Positions 24,871 to 63,119 of a stretch of DNA of 64,000 nucleotides are shown here, piece by piece. Under the pieces are notes generated by a model. The model was not told the DNA's origin. It worked only from the letters and a program-made list of their open reading frames with translations, and searched no databases. Within the stretch, counting starts at the first letter, position 1. Each line of letters begins with the position of its first letter. The DNA is from Escherichia phage vB_EcoM_OE5505: sequence record NC_054926.1, one strand, 5' to 3'. A program made the position numbers and the translations under genes.

Positions 24871-24931
24871 TTTGTGTTCCTCATGTTATGTCAGTAAGAC
24901 TACTATAACACAACACGAGGGACTTGTAAAC
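24871..24931 (-). promoter_or_regulatory. Early-type promoter plus conserved leader, copy A
   Basis: Minus strand reads GTTTAC-(18 nt)-TATAGT, then the leader AGTCTTACTGACATAACATGAGGA before the ATG at 24870. A 38-nt block (24878-24915) is identical to 40697-40734. Confidence 0.4.
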
Positions 24932-26982
24932 TACATTTTGAACTTTTTAGACATTCCGTTGATGTTAACCAAAGAAGCTAAGATTTGAGAAACTTCGCTT
25001 TCCTCTTCTTTTGATTCTTCTACAAGGAATTGATTAAATCCAGCCATTGGACGAACTTCACCAGTTTCCATTAGATGGTCGCCATCATATACTGATTCTT
25101 CTAATTGTTCAGAAGGAGGAACGATTGTACCTTCGATTAGATACTTGTTATAAGCAGTTTCTTTCATAAAGTAAGTACTTACTTTATTAATCTTCAGTAA
25201 AATTCCACGTGGTAGAATAATTTCAGCTTCTGACGGAAATCCTGATAAATGACCCGGAACGATAACTTTGATTCGCTCAGCTCCTTTAATTACCATACCC
25301 ACGCTAGTTTCAGCATCTTCATTAGCATATGTAGAATGACTACCCATATGCATCAAATCTTCTGCATCAACGGAACCTTCTCCTTCACCAGAAAATACTG
25401 CGCCGGAATCATCTAGAGCCATATAGTTTTTACCATGCTCACCGAAGATATTTGGTTTAAGCGATGTGGATACGAAGTTCTTGAAATAGAACATTTTATT
25501 TTCAATGTTATGACGCAAAGTTTTAAAGGTAACTTCTTGTCCACGGTAAAGTGTAGTTCCTGGAGGAAGAACTGAACCTTTAGCGAATGCAGAATCAAGC
25601 GTCTCAATATGTTTAATAGCTCGTTCCATATATTCTTCACGGGTAGAATCTGGTTTACCCAAAAGGAACGAGTTCATTTCAACATATGAATCTGCACAAT
25701 AATCTTCAATTACATCAGATTCAGCTTGAGTTAATCCTTTTGGAGTTACTTCAGTGCTTGCGTATTCATATGCCTGAGCAGCAGATTCATTAATCAATTT
25801 ATAAATGCCATTCATGACAAATTGAATAATAGCTGTCTTTTCATCTGGCGTAGCTTTAGAACCTTTAACCAAATCATTGATAATTTTCTTAATAACATCA
25901 AAGCTATTAGAAATATTAATATCAGCAAGATCGCTTAAAATTTTATCAGTCTTATAATCAAAGAATTCTTTATTCTTTAAATATTCTTGAGAACCTTGAT
26001 ATGTTATATCGCTCTGTAACTTGATAGATGGATCACGTAAACGTGCATGGGCTAATGCAATATGATTTCGGAAGCTTTCGAGTTCATAATCACTAGATTT
26101 AAAACGAGAAGCGCTTCTCATACCGCCTATAGCTCCTTTGCTGAAGTTTGAACCAATTTGAATAACGCCAGAGTTCATTGGTCCTTCTGCTTTATACACC
26201 GGAACTTTAGATTCAAACTCTTGATATTTCTTAGCAGCGAAGCTATCACCCTGAAGTGAAGCATCAACAGTAGAATATTGAGCTTGTGCTGCTAATCGAC
26301 GACTAATTTTAGTTTTCTGAATAACAGCTTGGTCCGTGCGCTTATCATTTTCTAAAGCAATAGAAGCAGCAACAGCTTTAGGAACAGCATTACCTGTTTT
26401 AACATCTACATAAACATCACCAACCTTTGATTCAACTTTTGTGAATAACTCAGTTGAAATAGGAGGTACACCTGGAATGTCTTCTAAATTGGCATTTTTA
26501 CGATAAACCATAATATATGCGTACTTTTTATCATAATCCCAGATTTCCTTTAAAAGAACATATCGACCTGCTCCTTTAGTACGTACTAAACGGTCAGCAA
26601 TAACTTGCATTTGACGAGCTGCGCCATTTGTTTTACTCTTTAGTACACGGAATAAGCACGCGTCAATTTTATACTGCTTCATTGTTTGAAGAGCAGTATC
26701 AAAAACGGCATTAATGACACCAATTGGATTTCCACCCAAGTTTTTAAGCTTAACTAATGATAGTTTCTCATTAACACCTATCATTACGATATGCATCATT
26801 TTATCGCCTGGCTTAACGTTTTTATTCGTATCACCACCAGAGGTGTATGTACAAAATCTAAATCCAGGAAGCACGCTTTCTTCGCCGGCTTGAATAGCAA
26901 AAATTTGTGGTATTTTATGCTTAGGATTTAAGTTAACAACCGGCGCCGAAGCGCCGTCAAATAATTCTGTAATAAGTTCCAT
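24931..26982 (-). CDS. Alt-family ADP-ribosyltransferase paralogue (second copy, 683 aa)
   Basis: Begins MELITELFD like Alt and has the same architecture; R/STS/ExE-like motifs are retained (LYRGQ, FVSTSL, SEAEIILPRG); the central region diverges from the upstream copy; its own AAGGA Shine-Dalgarno lies inside the upstream gene's 3' end. Confidence 0.8.
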   Translation of the reverse strand: MELITELFDGASAPVVNLNPKHKIPQIFAIQAGEESVLPGFRFCTYTSGGDTNKNVKPGDKMMHIVMIGVNEKLSLVKLKNLGGNPIGVINAVFDTALQTMKQYKIDACLFRVLKSKTNGAARQMQVIADRLVRTKGAGRYVLLKEIWDYDKKYAYIMVYRKNANLEDIPGVPPISTELFTKVESKVGDVYVDVKTGNAVPKAVAASIALENDKRTDQAVIQKTKISRRLAAQAQYSTVDASLQGDSFAAKKYQEFESKVPVYKAEGPMNSGVIQIGSNFSKGAIGGMRSASRFKSSDYELESFRNHIALAHARLRDPSIKLQSDITYQGSQEYLKNKEFFDYKTDKILSDLADINISNSFDVIKKIINDLVKGSKATPDEKTAIIQFVMNGIYKLINESAAQAYEYASTEVTPKGLTQAESDVIEDYCADSYVEMNSFLLGKPDSTREEYMERAIKHIETLDSAFAKGSVLPPGTTLYRGQEVTFKTLRHNIENKMFYFKNFVSTSLKPNIFGEHGKNYMALDDSGAVFSGEGEGSVDAEDLMHMGSHSTYANEDAETSVGMVIKGAERIKVIVPGHLSGFPSEAEIILPRGILLKINKVSTYFMKETAYNKYLIEGTIVPPSEQLEESVYDGDHLMETGEVRPMAGFNQFLVEESKEEESEVSQILASLVNINGMSKKFKM

Positions 26983-36612: not shown

Positions 36613-36845
36613 AGTACGCCATACACCCTTTGTGCTTCAACTAATCCATCAAAATCCAATTTGAGATGTGTTATTTGGTCACCATCACCTGGATTCACAA
36701 TTACTAATACTGAACGAGGAGTCTCGGTAATAACACGAACCGATGTTTCAGGAAATCGTTCAGAAACCTTATTTACCAATTCTTGAGCAAATAGTTTAAC
36801 TTTTTCTTGGAATTCTTTAACAGTAATTGGTTTTTCGCTTAGCAT
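36609..36845 (-). CDS. Hypothetical protein (78 aa)
   Basis: ATG start. Confidence 0.5.
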   Translation of the reverse strand: MLSEKPITVKEFQEKVKLFAQELVNKVSERFPETSVRVITETPRSVLVIVNPGDGDQITHLKLDFDGLVEAQRVYGVL

Positions 36846-37366
36846 GTTGATCCCAGCTCCTTACTTTCAACGTTTTTAACTAATTTGACAGAAACTAATT
36901 CGGCATCTTGGGTAATCATTACCGGGCCTTCTTCATACTCTTCAAGATATTCTAGAGCTTTCTTTTTAGCTTCTTCCTTCGTATCAGTTTGAGCATAGAT
37001 ATAGAACATACAACCAGTAATACCTACTACTTTCCACTTAATTTCTTTATCAGCTTTAATTTCAAATTTACTGACAGAATCATCTTTTTGAACTTCTTCG
37101 AAAAAAGAATATTCTAACATATAAGCAATTGAAAATAACGGGCTAACTTTATAGGATTCGCCCATTACATCAACAGCTTTATACCAGCAATCGTCAATTT
37201 CGCGTTTAATGCTAATAACATTTTTCGCAGGATCTATTTTTACTTTAAATGAATTTTCCCCAATAAACTGGGCAATTCGTTTATTAGCCCCACAAGTTTC
37301 ATTAAAAATATCTTTATATCCAGCTTTAAAGCGATAAACCTTACCTTCTTCAAACCATTCGCTCAT
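36839..37366 (-). CDS. Hypothetical protein (175 aa)
   Basis: ATG start. Confidence 0.5.
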   Translation of the reverse strand: MSEWFEEGKVYRFKAGYKDIFNETCGANKRIAQFIGENSFKVKIDPAKNVISIKREIDDCWYKAVDVMGESYKVSPLFSIAYMLEYSFFEEVQKDDSVSKFEIKADKEIKWKVVGITGCMFYIYAQTDTKEEAKKKALEYLEEYEEGPVMITQDAELVSVKLVKNVESKELGSTC

Positions 37367-38097: not shown

Positions 38098-39318
<1,221 letters not shown>

Positions 39319-39322
<4 letters not shown>

Positions 39323-47326: not shown

Positions 47327-47674
47327 TCAATACGGTTTAGCATCAAATTTTCTCTCAATTTCAGGTGTGAAATATAATTCTTTACCACGTTTGGAAAAGC
47401 GACCAATAATATGATAATTATTCTCATCAAACATGATATTACCAATATCCATAGCTTTCAACCAAATATCGATATTTCTATCCAGCTTTATGTCAAAATT
47501 CCAATACGGAGAACTATTACCGAAAATACTGCAAGCGGATTCAGTGAAACAACTGCTATAAATCTTGTCTTTAGGAACTACTAATTGATAGACACCTTTA
47601 ATAAACTGAGGACCTTGCCATTTTGGCTGTTTCGCGTCTTCTTCTAATAGAATAGGGTAATAATTAAAATTCAT
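47327..47674 (-). CDS. Hypothetical protein inserted between frd and td (115 aa from ATG)
   Basis: ORF track starts at a GTG (47686); first ATG at 47674. No family recognised. Confidence 0.5.
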   Translation of the reverse strand: MNFNYYPILLEEDAKQPKWQGPQFIKGVYQLVVPKDKIYSSCFTESACSIFGNSSPYWNFDIKLDRNIDIWLKAMDIGNIMFDENNYHIIGRFSKRGKELYFTPEIERKFDAKPY

Positions 47675-47694
47675 ATTTTCCGCCACGCGTTATT

Positions 47695-48521
<827 letters not shown>

Positions 48522-48912: not shown

Positions 48913-49278
48913 CTACTTTTTGAAAGTTTTTCGCAAAAGTTCAATGATTTCATCTACATTGTTTTCGTCAACAATGCAGTGAATTTTTGTTACGCCAGAA
49001 ACTTTGTCTTTGACTTCATCTTCTTCAGAAGTCGGTTCTTTATACTCACGAAAACAATGAAATTCGTCTTCACAAACGTTAAAGTAAAAATGCTTTCCAT
49101 TTGCGCATTCAATGTGTTTTATTACTCTAAATCCATCAACAAAGAAAGCTTCTTTAACTTCAAACCATCCGCCATTTTCTTGAATAATTTTAACTATTGC
49201 TGAATTAGAACGTGGGCGATAATTAATAAATGTATCAATAAGTCTTGGAACAAGTTCATACTTTTTACCGATATACAT
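48913..49278 (-). CDS. Hypothetical protein (121 aa)
   Basis: ATG start; contains several Cys/His (CANGKH...CEDEFHC). Confidence 0.5.
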   Translation of the reverse strand: MYIGKKYELVPRLIDTFINYRPRSNSAIVKIIQENGGWFEVKEAFFVDGFRVIKHIECANGKHFYFNVCEDEFHCFREYKEPTSEEDEVKDKVSGVTKIHCIVDENNVDEIIELLRKTFKK

Positions 49279-49322
49279 TATGTTTTCCTCATTTTAACGG
49301 GGCTGTAATAGCCCCTTGATAA

Positions 49323-49550
49323 TTATTGTTCAATCAATCCCATGTAAAATTCTGCGTCTTCAGAATCCATACCATCACAATATTCATTAGCCATAAAGCG
49401 GGTGAGGTCTTCAAGAGGACCTTCAATAACGATTTGAATACTCCAAAAATTAGAATCTTGCACGCTTGTGATACTAAGTTCAGGATAACGATTACGAATA
49501 ATTTCTTCGATATATTCAAAATCAACGATGTCAATATCAACTTTAGCCAT
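49323..49550 (-). CDS. Hypothetical acidic protein (75 aa from the internal ATG)
   Basis: ORF track gives 96 aa from 49613, but the ATG at 49550 is preceded by AAAGAGGAAAATAAT; the upstream part overlaps the gene 32 terminator region. Confidence 0.45.
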
Positions 49551-49635
49551 ATTATTTTCCTCTTTAATCATCAGCAGTATTGCCGATAGTTGTATAGTAC
49601 CATGGAAGGACAAGGATGTAAACAGTTTTGTGAAA

Positions 49636-49672
49636 AAATTTTTGAAATAAAAAGGGGACCTCTAGGGTCCCC
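49636..49672 (-). terminator. Rho-independent terminator after gene 32
   Basis: On the minus strand GGGGACC-cuaga-GGUCCCC followed by TTTTTATTTC. Confidence 0.65.
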
Positions 49673-49694
49673 AATTAATTAGTAATATAATCTA

Positions 49695-50600
49695 TTAAAG
49701 GTCATTCAAAAGGTCATCTAGGTCCGTGTCATCAGCACTAGATGAACTGCCAGAGCTTGAGCTCATAAAATCATCTTCAGTTTTTGTATTGAAGTCATCA
49801 ACATTGAATGCATCCAAATCATCAGCAACTTTATCAGCTTTCTTAGCAGCAGTTGCAGCAGCACCGCCCATCACAGCAGTTCCCATAACTTGACCGAATT
49901 TAGTGCTCAGTTCTTCAAACGATTTGAATTTATCTTTAGAAGTCATTTCAGAAAGGTCAACCATTTGTTCGAACAGTTCTTTCTGGAAAGATTCATCGTC
50001 AATGTTTGGAATCGCAGATTGATTCAGGAATTTAGATTCGTCGTAGTTACTAAATCCAGAAACCTGTTTAACTTTCAGTACAAAGTTAGCACCTTCCCAC
50101 GGACAAGTTACATCAACCGGAGTTTCACCCATTTCAACATCAACCGCAATCATCGCGTTGATTTTATCCCAGATTTTCTTACCGAAACGATATTTAAATA
50201 CTTTACCTTCATTTTCTGGAGCAGCTGGGTCTTTTACAACAAGAATATTAGCCCAGTAAGAAGTTTTACGTTTAACAAGACTGTACTCTTTATTGTCAGT
50301 GTTGTACAGATCATTTTTACTGATGTACTGACATACTGGACAAGAATCGTAATCACCATGGGTAGATGAACATGTTTCAATATACCATTTACCATTTTTC
50401 TTGAAACCGTGATTTACAAGAATTGCGAATGGTGCTTGTTCATCATTTTTAGACGGAAGAAAACGAATTACTGCTTGACCGTTACCCGCATTATCGAGTT
50501 TCAGTTTCCACTCGCCTTTATCTTCAGAAGAAAAACCTTTATTGCCATTCAGTTTAGCCATTTGTGCAGCAAGTTCAGCAGTAGATTTACGTTTAAACAT
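49695..50600 (-). CDS. 32: Single-stranded DNA-binding protein gp32
   Basis: 301-aa ORF, T4 gp32 length; acidic C-terminal tail; sequence recognised. Confidence 0.95.
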
Positions 50601-50660
50601 TTTATTTCCTTTTTAATTTAATTTAATTAACAGTTGGTGCTATGACACTTTACCTCATAG
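50601..50660 (-). promoter_or_regulatory. gp32 translational operator (AU-rich leader with upstream hairpin)
   Basis: Minus strand reads CUAUGA-gguaaagug-UCAUAG then UUAAUUAAAUUAAAUUAAAAAGGAAAUAAA-AUG: an unstructured repeated UUAAA region like the T4 gene 32 autoregulatory site, with a hairpin in the position of the T4 pseudoknot. Confidence 0.55.
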
Positions 50661-51287
50661 CTGGCATAATTCGCAATACTCTGGGTCTTCGAGAGGTATC
50701 CAACCTGAGTTGAAATACTTTACCATCGATTTAGCAGTTGTATCAGTTATATTTATATTACCTTTAACTCTTCGCCATCCAGGAGTTTTACCGTACAGAT
50801 TAGAGGATAATAATAACACATAATTCTCGTAAGCAATATGAGATAATTTCCAAGACTCTATATTAGCTCGTGATGTTTTCCAAGGTCTAAAATCGTCACG
50901 GTTCATATAATTAGCCAATCTCATATGCTCTCTAACTTCCGGGTCTTTGGCTGGATGAGTTTCACCACTCACACCAAATCCACCACCAGCATATACCAGA
51001 TTAAAATAGTCTGGATTATCTCTGGCATTTACTTCAAGTTGGTATTTTCGTTCTGCTTCAATAACATCCAAGTCATCATCAATTTGAATTATTTTAACGC
51101 TCGGTTTTTGAAGCATTAGCGCATTCAAAAATCTTTTTTGTTTACATGAGCTCCAGTATTCCTTTCCGGAAGAGTCATATATTATTCCGTTCTCAAATGA
51201 GCAATTTAATTTACTACCGATATAATAGTATGGCGGAGTCTTATTTTTGACACGGTCTTCAAATGTAAACCAATATACTATATTCAT
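50655..51287 (-). CDS. Hypothetical protein between genes 59 and 32; possibly a degenerate GIY-YIG (Seg-like) endonuclease
   Basis: 210-aa ORF in the position occupied by segG in T4. Weak GIY-YIG-like pattern: IVYWFTF...YYYIGSK, later ERKYQLEVNARDNPDYFNL; the spacing is atypical. Confidence 0.5.
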   Translation of the reverse strand: MNIVYWFTFEDRVKNKTPPYYYIGSKLNCSFENGIIYDSSGKEYWSSCKQKRFLNALMLQKPSVKIIQIDDDLDVIEAERKYQLEVNARDNPDYFNLVYAGGGFGVSGETHPAKDPEVREHMRLANYMNRDDFRPWKTSRANIESWKLSHIAYENYVLLLSSNLYGKTPGWRRVKGNINITDTTAKSMVKYFNSGWIPLEDPEYCELCQL

Positions 51288-51288
51288 A

Positions 51289-51942
51289 TCAATACTTGCA
51301 AGATTTCACAGTTTCAATGAAAACATTTTTAGCTTTCTGTGAATCAATATTTAAAATTTTTCTATAAGCCTTTAACTTTATAGAATAATTATTCCAGACT
51401 AAATTATCAGTCTGTTCATCATGTTTATCAATTATATTTAAAAACGAATCAAGCAAGATAAACGTCTCAAACGAAATTATGTTCGATTGAAGTAGTTTAA
51501 AAATATAACTTGATTGAACTTTTGGATTATATTCAAAAATTTCTTTAAAAGCAGAAACTTCAACTTTTTTACTGAAATAGTAAATGTTGCGAATATCTTC
51601 TTCAAACTTAAATTTAATTTGCTTCAAGCGTCCGATATATTCACGATAAAACACAAGTGCATCAGCGTCAGAGATGTCACCAATCCAAGCATCTTGGTTA
51701 GCTACAAGATTGCTAATAAAAATTAAAGTTAATTCTTTTAATTTATACTTTTCTGATAGCTTTTGGAAAAAATACTTATCCCTTCGCTTTTGATAAGCGG
51801 CATCAGACACCCGCATGCACCAATTATACTTAATTACATCATACTTTCCATTCATATGTTGTTTTATCATTAAGTATAATTTATAAACTGATTTACCATC
51901 AATGTATCTTTCACCACCAGCAGGCATGCGGAGTTTAATCAT
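51289..51942 (-). CDS. 59: Helicase loader gp59
   Basis: 217-aa ORF, T4 gp59 length; sequence recognised. Confidence 0.9.
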   Translation of the reverse strand: MIKLRMPAGGERYIDGKSVYKLYLMIKQHMNGKYDVIKYNWCMRVSDAAYQKRRDKYFFQKLSEKYKLKELTLIFISNLVANQDAWIGDISDADALVFYREYIGRLKQIKFKFEEDIRNIYYFSKKVEVSAFKEIFEYNPKVQSSYIFKLLQSNIISFETFILLDSFLNIIDKHDEQTDNLVWNNYSIKLKAYRKILNIDSQKAKNVFIETVKSCKY

Positions 51943-52277
51943 AGTAGAAAATCTAATGTATTAGTTTTTTCACAACGAACAACAGAAGGACGCAAAAGAT
52001 TTTCGTCGATAGCTTCTGACTGAATTTTTTCAATTATACCCGAAGGAATAAATTTAGCAAATTGAGTTTCAGGAATAGAGTTTTCTTCTAAGAATGCTGT
52101 TGTAGCTTCAAGATAACTCATTCCAAACTCTTCTACCATTTTTTCAATAATAAATCCATTTTCTTGACGATCAAGAAGCTTTGCTATTTCATCCTTTTCT
52201 TTCTTGATTGAAAGTTCTTTTTCTGAAAGACCGGTCTCATCGACCGGACGAATGTCATTTAGAGAAAACTGTGTCAT
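51939..52277 (-). CDS. 33: Late transcription co-activator gp33
   Basis: ORF track starts at a TTG (52286); ATG at 52277 gives 112 aa, the T4 gp33 length. Confidence 0.85.
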   Translation of the reverse strand: MTQFSLNDIRPVDETGLSEKELSIKKEKDEIAKLLDRQENGFIIEKMVEEFGMSYLEATTAFLEENSIPETQFAKFIPSGIIEKIQSEAIDENLLRPSVVRCEKTNTLDFLL

Positions 52278-58610: not shown

Positions 58611-59261
58611 ATGGCTGATTTAAAAGTAGGTTCAACTGTAGGTGGATCTGTCATTTGGCATCAAGGAAATTTTCCATTGAATTCAGCCGGTGACGATGTA
58701 CTCTACAAATCATTTAAAATATATTCAGAATATAATAAACCACAGGCAGCTGATAACGATTTCGTTTCTAAAGCTAATGGTGGTACTTACACCGGTCCAA
58801 TTACTATTAATTACGGGGTAAATAGTTATCTTCAATTAAGTAATAATGAAACCCCCATTCGAATTCGTTCTGGTGGCGGTACCGGTAATACTCTTGTAGT
58901 TGGCGGCTCTTCCGGCGGTATTAGTTTTAGACCTGCAGGTAGTGAAATCACTACTGGACAAATTACTATTACACCAGAAGGTTTGACAACATTTACCAGG
59001 GCTGTAACGGCTCCATCGATAACTGTTACATCTACTCCTTCCGCAGCATCTGATGTTACTCGTAAAGATTATGTTGATGGAGCAATAAATACTGTTACAG
59101 CAAATGCAAACTCTAGGGTATTACGCTCTGGAGACACTATGACAGGAAATTTAACTGCGCCAAACCTTTTTTCACAGAATCCTGCATCTCAACCTTCACA
59201 CGTTCCACGATTTGACCAAATCGTAATTAAGGATTCTGTTCAAGATTTCGGCTATTATTAA
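58611..59261 (+). CDS. 36: Long tail fibre distal connector gp36
   Basis: 216-aa ORF; N-terminus [23 protein letters not shown] typical of gp36. Confidence 0.9.
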
Positions 59262-59269
59262 GAGGACTT

Positions 59270-62254
59270 ATGGCTACTTTAAAACAAATACAATTTAAAA
59301 GAAGCAAAACTGCAGGTCAACTTCCTGCTGCTTCAGTATTAGCCGAAGGTGAATTGGCTATTAATTTAAAAGATAAAACAATTTTCACAAAAGATGACTC
59401 AGGCAATGTTATAGAATTAGGTTTAAAATATGGAGGAACTATAAATGGATCTTTAGAGGTTACAGAAAATATAACTGGAACTTTAATTGGAAATTCTAGT
59501 ACAGCTACTAAATTGCAAACACCTAGGAAAATTAATGGTATATCTTTTGATGGATCAAAGGACATTACACTAACTCCATCTGATATAAATGTAAATAGTA
59601 CAACATTTATAAAAAATAATGGCGAATTACCTGTTGATGCTAATTTAGATGAGTATGGGCCTGTTGAAGAATATCTTGGTGTTTGGTCGAAAGCAACTTC
59701 AACCAACGCTCAACCAGCAAATAAATTTCCAGAAGAAAATGCTGTAGGTGTGCTAGAAGTATTTGTGGCCGGTCAATTTGCTGGTACTCAGAGATATACA
59801 ACTAGATACGGAAATGTTTATATTCGTTCCTTGACTGCTACATGGAACGGAGTAAATGGTCCGTGGAGTGTGTGGCGAAATATTCAATCCGGTACTCGTC
59901 CACTGTCAACAACAATTGATCTTAATGATCTAGGAGGCGCTGAACACTTTGGTTTGTGGCGAAATAGTTCAAATTCTATTGCTACCTTTGACAGAAATTT
60001 CCCAGAAGAGGGGTTGTCAGCTCAAGGACTTTTAGAAGTATATGAAGGTGGAAACTATTCTCGCACACAGAGATATACGACCAGATTTGGTGTTGTTTAT
60101 ACTCGCTGTCTTGCTGCTGCATGGGATGCATCTGCGCCTAATTGGGGACCGTGGCAACAAGTCGGTAATGTCACACCAGCGACTTTCTATGATGGAGATC
60201 TGAATGATTTTAAAACTCCTGGGTTATATAATATTTTAGGCACTGATGCCGTTATTAACTGTCCTACCGGTGAAGGTTTGCCGACTGTTATTGTTGGTTT
60301 GCTGGAAGTTAAACAGCGTGCTTCTGGTGGTGCTATTTTCCAAAAATTTACTACTGCCGGAACAGGTGCAACTACCCGCGATCGTATTTTTGAGCGTGCA
60401 TATACCGGCGGTGTTTGGGGTACATGGAACGAAGTATATACATCTTACTCTCTTCCAATTACTTTGGGTATGGGTGGTATTAAATCTAACTTAGCAGAGT
60501 TAGACTGGCAAACATTTGATTTTGTTCCTGGTAGTATGTTTAGCGTTCCTTTGAACAAAATAAAGAACATGCCAGCTAATATGGATTGGGGTACGATTGA
60601 CGGAAACTTAATTATGTTTTCTGTTGGTCCTAGCGAGCACACTAGCACAGGACGTACTGTTCAGGTTTGGCGTGGTACTGTATCCCAGACAAACTACCGT
60701 TATTTTGTCGTTCGTGTGTTCGGTAATTCTGGAAATAGAACTTGCACAGTCCGCCGTGTTGTTCTTGAAGATGGTCGCCACACATGGACAGCTCAACAAG
60801 ATTTTAATGGTGCTGTTAACTTCGGTGCTCCTACCAATTTTAACTCTACTGTTAACCTTAATAACACTACCACATTTAAAACAGAAGTTAAATTCCGCTC
60901 GTCGACTGCATTCCGTATGTATGGCGGAAAATTTGGTACATTTTTACGTAATGATGGAGAGAGTCTTTATATTCTTTCCACCGACGAAGATGATCAAGAT
61001 GGAAACTTTAATACAAATAGACCTTTCCGTTATGAATTAAGAACTGGTGATGTTACTTTAGGTGGTACTAGTGGTGCTAACGTTTTAATTTTAAAACGTG
61101 ATTCTCTCACCGCATTTTTTGGTGGTGATATTAACATGAAAGGCTTGATGACTTTTGACGCCGGACGTTTAGGATCACGAGATTATTTTAAATTTAACCA
61201 TTGGGGTGATAGCAATAACGCTCGTGATAACATTATTCAGTTAGAAGACAGCAAAGGCGCTCATTTTTCCACTGAACGTACTTTAGCGACTGGTGCAATT
61301 AAGACTAAATTTTTTGGTGAAATTGAATCCGATGGTAAATTGGTTATTAAACGTCCGGGTGATTCTATTGTATTATCAGCACCTGCTAGTAATTCTTTGC
61401 ATATTCGTGGTGACGTAGACGGGACTGGTAACTGGTATATTGGTAAGGGTGGTGATGATAATGGATTAGCGTTCTATAGTTATGCTACTAATGCTGGTGT
61501 ATACATTACAAACGCAGGGGATATCACGCTAAGTCCAAAAGGCGTCGAAATGGCTCAGGTCAATAACGTTCGATTATATGTTCATGGTGAACGTTGGACC
61601 GCTAGTCAACCAGGTGATTGGGGCAGTCAGTGGCAAGTGGAAGCGCCAATATTCGTCGATCATGGTTATGTTTCACAGGATTGTTATTATCCAATTATTA
61701 AAGGAAGAAGTGTAGTCACCAATCAAGGGTTTGTAACTGCCGTCGATCTTGGTATTCGTCGTGTCAATAACAATTGGGGACAAGCAATTATTCGTGTTGG
61801 ATCTGCGGAGGCATCGCCAGCGGCTGGACACCCTAACGCGGTATTTGAATTTCATTACGACGGTACTTTCTATTCTCCTGGTAATGGTAACTTTAACGAT
61901 GTGTATATTCGTTCCGATGGTCGTCTTAAGATTAATAAAAAAGAGCTAGAAAACGGAGCACTTGAAAAAGTATGCCGACTGAAAGTTTATATTTACGATA
62001 AGGTTAAGTCTATTAAAGATCGTAGTGTTATTAAACGTGAAGTTGGTATTATTGCTCAGGACCTTGAAAAGGAATTACCGGAAGCTGTATCTAAAGTTGA
62101 AGTTGATGGATCTGATGTTCTGACAATTTCTAACTCCGCTGTAAATGCTCTTTTAATTAAGGCTATCCAAGAAATGAGCGAAGAAATTAAAGAATTGAAA
62201 ACTCCTTTCTTTACTAAAATTACTCGCAAAATTAGTAAATATTTTAAATTCTAA
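59270..62254 (+). CDS. 37: Long tail fibre distal subunit gp37 (T2/T6-type C-terminus)
   Basis: 994-aa ORF (T4 gp37 is 1026 aa); conserved N-terminus; three internal roughly 60-aa repeats; the C-terminal ~120 aa look like the cleaved chaperone-like segment of T2-type fibres. Confidence 0.93.
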
Positions 62255-62260
62255 CAACAA

Positions 62261-62277
62261 GGGGCAACGCCCCCTTT
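62261..62277 (+). other. Small hairpin between genes 37 and 38
   Basis: GGGGC-aac-GCCCC followed by CTTT, directly upstream of the gene 38 GGAG. Confidence 0.35.
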
Positions 62278-62288
62278 GGAGATAAATT

Positions 62289-63089
62289 ATGGCAGTAGTT
62301 GGTGTTCCTGGTTGGATTGGTAGTTCATCCGTAAATGAAACAGGACAACGATGGATGAGTCAAGCGGCTGGTCAATTAAGATTGGGTGTTCCTTGCTGGA
62401 TGAGCCAATTCGCCGGACGCTCAAAAGAGATTATTCATACCGTAACAGCAAACCACAATTTTAATGGTCAGTGGTTCCGTGATAGATGCTTTGAAGCTGG
62501 CGGTGCACCTATTGTATTCAATATTGTTGGTGATATCGTTTCTTATTCTAAAGATGTGCCACTTTTCTTTATGTATGGTGATACGCCTAATGAATATGTT
62601 GTTCTTAATATTCATGGTGGTGTTCATATGTGGGGTCGTGGTGGTAATGGTGGATACACTCACTCAGGAGGCGACGGTAACGGTACACAAGGCGGTCATG
62701 TTATTCAAAATGATATCGGTGGACGGCTTCGTATTTGGAACTACGGTGTTATAGCTGCTGGCGGTGGCGGCGGTGGTGGTATTGCATATCGTCCACACTC
62801 AGGGGCAAACTGGCAAGATATCGGTGGCGGTGGTGGTCGACCTTTCGGTGGCGGTGGTGGTGGCGGTTATTCCGGTGGTGCTGCTTCGTATGAAGGTCCG
62901 GGTGGTGGTTATGACTATGGTAACGCACACTCCGGCGCAGGTGGTAATGCTGGTGCTGCTGGTCAGAATGCATGGTATGACGGTGGTAAAGTTCTTAAAG
63001 TTGGTGTTGGTGGTGCGTCTGGTCATGCAGTGTTTGGGTCTTCTCCAACTTGGGGTGCTGTTGGAGCAATATATGGTCCAAGAGTATAA
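62289..63089 (+). CDS. 38: Tail fibre adhesin gp38, glycine-rich (T2/T6 type)
   Basis: 266-aa ORF with poly-glycine motifs ([22 protein letters not shown]) separated by short variable segments; unlike the 183-aa T4 gp38 assembly chaperone. Confidence 0.85.
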
Positions 63090-63119
63090 TTTGAATAAAT
63101 ATCCTTAAAAGGAGGGTCT

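Follow-up and report, generated by a model that had tools for sequence, protein, structure and literature searches.

Results

The open reading frame between genes 59 and 32

The DNA analysed in this study (hereafter the window) is a stretch of 64,000 nucleotides of Escherichia phage vB_EcoM_OE5505 (NC_054926.1). Comparison by blastn with positions 96000-168903 of phage T4 has shown that the window is collinear with T4 96855-161101, with 93-97% identity over most of its length. An open reading frame (ORF) of 210 codons, beginning with ATG and closed by a TGA stop codon, is located between gene 59 and gene 32 and is encoded on the same strand as both neighbours (Table 1). It is free-standing and has no intron context. 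A preliminary description of this region, prepared from the letters of the sequence, had given the ORF its correct coordinates, strand and start codon, while its distances need a slight correction: the gap to gene 59 is 1 nt (position 51288) and not 2 nt, and the distance to the gene 32 start is 54 nt (50601..50654), the earlier value of 55 nt being that of the T4 reference.

Table 1. Features of the segG locus in the window
Feature	Position	Strand	Basis or remark
Gene 32 (single-stranded DNA-binding protein), downstream neighbour	49695..50600	-	ORF; homology to T4 gene 32 through the window-T4 alignment
Predicted stem hairpin GCUAUGA/UCAUAGC of the gene 32 translational-operator pseudoknot	50639..50661	-	5' arm GCUAUGA includes the segG stop codon
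segG coding sequence	50655..51287	-	ORF list; identity with T4 SegG; PHROG 7504 match
C-terminal all-helical domain, residues 108-210, presumed DNA-binding/target-recognition module	50658..50966	-	
segG-specific cassette, 626 nt	50665..51290	-	Alignments with T2, EC101 and fPS-2
Putative RNase E processing site (approximate)	50670..50671	-	T4 position -71 mapped; last codons of segG
TATAAATA, late-promoter motif for gene 32	50750..50757	-	Exact match, inside segG; annotated likewise in phage SA20RB
Putative MotA-type middle-promoter-like site (TTGCTTA, 15 nt, TATTAT)	50810..50836	-	Read from sequence; corresponds to the annotated middle promoter of ASO78A; agrees with PMC2988022
Flexible interdomain linker, residues 104-107	50967..50978	-	Sole segment of the model with pLDDT <50
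N-terminal GIY-YIG catalytic domain, about residues 1-103	50979..51287	-	Strand 1 IVY (3-5), strand 2 YIG (22-24), helix with E79, then N96
Gene 59 (helicase loader), upstream neighbour	51289..51942	-	Stop codon 1 nt from the segG ATG

Identity with SegG of phage T4

In the T4 reference genome (NC_000866) SegG is encoded at 147909..148541 (633 nt), between genes 59 and 32, and the two loci were compared over a 700-nt alignment which included the gene and both spacers. Alignment with T4 SegG (NP_049855.1, gene 32.1), proposed as a check in the preliminary description, returned identity at 210/210 residues. The nucleotide sequences agree at 632 of 633 positions and the single difference, TAT/TAC, is synonymous; outside the gene, the run of A before the gene 32 ATG was found to be one A shorter than in T4. 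The protein also matched PHROG 7504 ('homing endonuclease', 210 positions) from end to end with an E-value of 1.3e-133, and the tblastn search found the same protein at an identity of at least 95% in 139 phage records, many of which carry the label 'segG: homing endonuclease'. The ORF is not a chance ORF, because this level of protein identity is kept in 139 records and only one synonymous base separates it from T4.

The leading guess made earlier, that a GIY-YIG endonuclease of the Seg type occupies the position of segG, was thus right in substance. The accompanying terms 'uncharacterised', 'divergent' and 'degenerate' have to be withdrawn, because the protein is identical to T4 SegG and matches PHROG 7504 throughout. 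T4 SegG, the identical protein, is listed as experimentally tested, with gene 32 as its target (PMC2988022, PMC2330249).

The catalytic domain and its conserved residues

The predicted structure places two domains on either side of a short linker (Table 1), and a role in DNA binding can be ascribed by inference to the C-terminal one. In the model, the catalytic domain has the alpha/beta fold of GIY-YIG nucleases; Foldseek ranked I-TevI first, but only at an E-value of 1.5. The GIY-YIG-like motifs that had been quoted from the sequence are present (IVY at 3-5 and YIG at 22-24, followed by E79 and N96) and fall on invariant or nearly invariant columns of the family. In sets of 27 and of 122 homologues, conservation was complete or reached at least 90% at Y5, Y22-I23-G24, E79 and N96. 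These residues are read as the tyrosine of the GIY motif, the YIG motif itself, the catalytic glutamate and the structural asparagine, in agreement with the fold. In the close family the invariant columns are R12, P19, Y22, I23, G24, S25, K26, C29, Y44, S47, E79, N96 and A100, and in the 122-member alignment conservation of at least 90% was observed for V4, Y5, P19, Y22, I23, G24, S25, K26, Y44, S47, E79 and N96. The spacing of the motifs is atypical, as had been remarked, with 17 residues from Y5 to Y22 and a short helix (residues 10-15) in the intervening loop. This spacing is a property of authentic SegG and no sign of decay.

Scans of the SegG protein against Pfam (PF01541, PF19835) and NCBIfam gave no match at E-values up to 10, and precomputed Pfam domains were found in none of 29 database homologues. 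When PDB sequences were searched by HMM with a profile built from 27 sequences, the sole match was an irrelevant isochorismatase at E 1, attributed to chance, and the hhalign comparison of the SegG family with an alignment of I-TevI, SegD and SegE was not significant (probability 1.4%). The preliminary description would have taken such an outcome of the profile searches as a refutation; the predicted fold and the conserved residues are nevertheless those of a GIY-YIG nuclease, which makes the outcome a false negative. The missing Pfam and NCBIfam match is explained by the limited sensitivity of the models and is not a defining property of the protein. An exhaustive profile search reached 530 clusters (at 50% identity) with E <=0.001, most of which have only residues 1-105 in common with SegG. 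Among the remote members, NUMOD3 motifs were present in 82/121 and a match to Pfam SegE_GIY-YIG (PF19835) in 7/121, and these may be regarded as an indirect sequence bridge to the GIY-YIG nucleases.

The SegG-type N-terminal domain was observed in fusion with C-terminal modules of several unrelated kinds, some of them Cys-rich and some with NUMOD3, and also at other genome positions, for example beside endonuclease VII or rpbA. This shows that domains have been shuffled in the family, which comprises at least 530 clusters and is missed by Pfam.

Some features of authentic SegG are atypical in comparison with the known GIY-YIG enzymes. In I-TevI, the endonuclease of the T4 td intron (catalytic domain PDB 1LN0/1MK0), the two tyrosines are 11 residues apart, against 17 in SegG. 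Strand 2 of I-TevI is followed by a helix bearing R27, whereas SegG has a beta-hairpin (30-37) at that place. Across the 122-homologue family no Arg reaches 90% conservation, R12 is invariant only in close relatives, and K26, Y44 and S47 are conserved instead. SegD and SegE resemble SegG in being free-standing phage GIY-YIG genes, and the 'EYWSS' of SegG is similar to their post-YIG 'GYxGSG'. On the other hand, SegG matches neither PF19835, the family of SegD and SegE, nor NUMOD3, and the target genes of these relatives are different.

Gene 32 signals within segG

Several signals of gene 32 are located inside segG or overlap its 3' end (Table 1). PMC3014915 places the RNase E cut in T4 at 71 nt before the start of gene 32, and this position was used for mapping the putative site in the window. 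An Rfam scan of 49500-52000 returned no gene 32 pseudoknot family, only a chance scaRNA match (E 0.09). The allele of the pseudoknot loop was perfectly linked to the presence of segG in 17 phages, nine of which carry the gene and eight of which are without it.

The leader of gene 32 (50601-50654) is itself variable: close relatives differ in how many UUAAA-type repeats they have and in how long the A-run before the gene 32 ATG is. In comparison to T4, the leader is 1 nt shorter in the window and 5 nt longer in ASO78A, and several phages have fewer repeats. The variable repeats fall in the region where gp32 binds for autoregulation.

Distribution of the cassette and its flanks

A query of 1451 nt covering 59-segG-32 was matched over its entire length in 139 records. 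About 340 further records matched at an identity of at least 95% in two pieces with 57% query coverage, and their homologous region has 865 nt as against 1451 nt. Presence and absence of segG (139 with, about 340 without) is a polymorphism with precise boundaries among close relatives, and the Tequatroviruses without the gene have a spacer of about 40 nt in place of the cassette, carrying its own TATAAATA. A scan of IMG/VR with gp32 gave four Tequatrovirus loci only, too few for population analysis, and individual GenBank phage records were used in its place.

Two decaying copies of segG were observed elsewhere, one with a frameshift near codon 50 (IMG/VR locus L009, 914-1548) and another divided between two CDSs in a mutant clone of T4 (locus L003, 2001-2559).

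The flanks of the cassette have a mosaic nature. Only 3 positions separate the window from T4 over 50341-51489, and the last ~200 nt of gene 59 are of the T4 type, unlike those of EC101 (OL310488), a phage without segG. The coding region of gene 32 at 49874..50598, however, is 100% identical to EC101 and has 17 differences from T4. This pattern is consistent with transfer of the cassette by recombination into different backbones, and it leaves the direction of transfer unproven.

Nine segG carriers were also compared with eight Tequatroviruses without segG for polymorphisms of gene 32, the phages being related to each other and the sites physically linked. The codon bases at 50373-50374, within a polymorphism cluster at 50358-50379, read 'CA' in 9/9 carriers and in 3/8 phages without segG; among the latter, EC101 and fPS-2 have 'CA', and T2, RB27, wV7 and ECO4 have 'AT' or 'AC'. 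This difference may reflect a polymorphism of the target or of immunity, or linkage alone may account for it. It is treated here as a lead only, in view of the small sample, the relatedness of the phages and the linkage of the sites.

Other homing elements and differences from T4 in the window

The preliminary description had noted that the T4 mobile elements are missing from the window, and the alignment bears this out. Clean deletions are present at segD, segE, the nrdB intron with I-TevIII, nrdB.1 with mobE, and the td intron with I-TevI, and tblastn searches of the 64-kb window with SegD, SegE, I-TevI, I-TevIII and MobE returned nothing. Its further statement that an endonuclease at this site would be the sole homing element of the window is equally sound, since tblastn with the T4 homing proteins found segG alone. 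The corresponding 64-kb stretch contains six homing elements in T4 and one in this phage. Five ORFs or insertions foreign to T4 were considered as further homing genes and were rejected, as they are PHROGs of unknown function or an Alt paralogue and none of them is nuclease-like.

Apart from the homing elements, some other departures from T4 were observed. An intact gene for a second Alt-like ADP-ribosyltransferase of 683 aa adjoins alt (24931-26982, minus strand), at a position where two short remnants, alt.-1 and alt.-2, are all that is present in T4. Four small minus-strand ORFs absent from T4 (36839-37366, 39002-39322, 47327-47686 and 48276-48521; 175, 106, 119 and 81 aa) match PHROGs of unknown function, and one of them separates td from frd, two genes that overlap in T4. 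Islands which diverge from T4 by about 40% or more are found at 49000-49300 (frd.2 region) and 48300-48500, in surroundings that are 95-99% identical. The tail-fibre genes 36, 37 and 38 (58789-63095) are not T4-like, the gp38 ORF having 266 aa as against 552 nt (~183 aa) in T4, and this suggests a different receptor-recognition module.

Discussion

Our study has identified the gene of 210 codons located between genes 59 and 32 as segG, which encodes a free-standing GIY-YIG homing endonuclease in T4-type phages. The gene resides here in a Tequatrovirus other than T4, and its product would act by the mechanism published for T4; we hold this reading with very little doubt. The identity with T4 SegG, the position, the cassette boundaries, the GIY-YIG fold of the model with its conserved residues, the patchy distribution and the mosaic flanks are all direct results of the present analysis. 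The gene is already known: it was described in 2003, together with its protein, target and biology, and it is annotated in many phage records. The protein, its site, its orientation and the overlaps with the regulatory signals of gene 32 are the same as in T4. The differences concern the host, which is another Tequatrovirus whose identity with T4 amounts to 93-97% over most of the window, the absence of the other T4 homing elements of the region, one synonymous base, and a gene 32 leader shortened by 1 nt.

The review PMC2988022 lists segG as a free-standing gene of the GIY-YIG type, inserted between 32 and 59, tested ('Yes') and directed against gene 32, with reference to Liu et al. 2003 (J Mol Biol 334:13-23). 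For the identical T4 protein, a site-specific double-strand cleavage in gene 32 of phages without segG, followed by gene conversion and marker exclusion, is reported by Liu et al. 2003, as cited in PMC2988022, PMC2330249 and PMC535899. In crosses of T4 with T2, SegG starts a homing-like gene conversion which explains the exclusion of T2 gene 32 (PMC2330249, PMC535899). [quoted passage not shown] The reading frame of segG and the pseudoknot of gene 32 overlap (PMC535899).

By analogy with this literature on T4, the nuclease activity, the target gene, the marker exclusion, the promoter activity and the RNase E site would be the same in the phage studied here. In a mixed infection with a relative that has no segG, SegG would bind through its C-terminal domain, and its N-terminal GIY-YIG domain would introduce a double-strand break in gene 32 of the rival, at a site which we take to be about 332 bp away from the insertion site. 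The break would be resected and then repaired by recombination from the genome carrying segG. In this way the gene 32 markers of the rival would be replaced (marker exclusion), and segG would sometimes be copied into the 59-32 spacer. The cassette presumably contains no promoter for segG, which would be expressed from upstream transcripts, and it carries motifs for the middle and late promoters of gene 32, an essential gene. Since the 3' end of segG would overlap the RNase E site and the translational pseudoknot of gene 32, its deletion should be disfavoured.

Three other explanations of the gene were weighed. It is conceivable, although rather unlikely, that segG is kept mainly because the phage gains from it, having in it a weapon against relatives that infect the same cell and a scaffold on which gene 32 is regulated, and is not purely selfish. 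Such a benefit would explain the survival of segG as the only homing element in 64 kb where T4 has six, the region's other T4 homing genes being missing; the essential gene 32 signals embedded in segG (PMC2988022) and the marker exclusion which favours the alleles of the carrier (PMC2330249) also fit with it. Against this, segG is dispensable, because it is absent from about 70% of close relatives, which have the 40-nt spacer with its own TATAAATA. The idea has been discussed before in PMC2988022, and it does not contradict the homing mechanism.

A degenerate and catalytically dead Seg remnant, kept only for the gene 32 promoters and for a part of the mRNA operator, is highly improbable. The gene 32 promoter motifs, the RNase E site and the 5' arm of the pseudoknot do lie in the ORF or overlap it (PMC2988022, PMC3014915), the nuclease domain goes unrecognised by the profile searches, and decaying copies exist elsewhere, in L009 and in the T4 mutant clone. 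Here, however, the ORF is intact and identical to a T4 protein reported as active (PMC2988022), every hallmark residue is present and the sole difference from T4 is synonymous.

That a gene unrelated to the Seg endonucleases merely occupies the same intergenic slot, as the preliminary description had also allowed, has a negligible probability: the lack of Pfam and NCBIfam matches and the atypical motif spacing could be cited in its favour, but it is refuted by the 100% identity with T4 SegG and the predicted GIY-YIG fold, and NUMOD3 and SegE_GIY-YIG occur in the homologue family.

Two further suggestions can be made tentatively, although they are less likely to hold than not. The SegG-type catalytic domains may form a large subclass of GIY-YIG domains (530 clusters) which goes undetected by the curated models, has no equivalent of the arginine helix of I-TevI and uses K26, Y44 and S47, together with R12 in the close family. 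Separately, the 'CA' at 50373-50374 of gene 32 could mark a natural target or immunity polymorphism.

This analysis also has a methodological lesson, as a criterion of 'no Pfam hit' would wrongly reject a genuine and experimentally characterised GIY-YIG endonuclease. In practical terms, segG is confirmed as the only homing element in this stretch of a Tequatrovirus poor in homing genes, and the mosaic flanks around it offer a natural illustration of segG travelling as a cassette between phage backbones.
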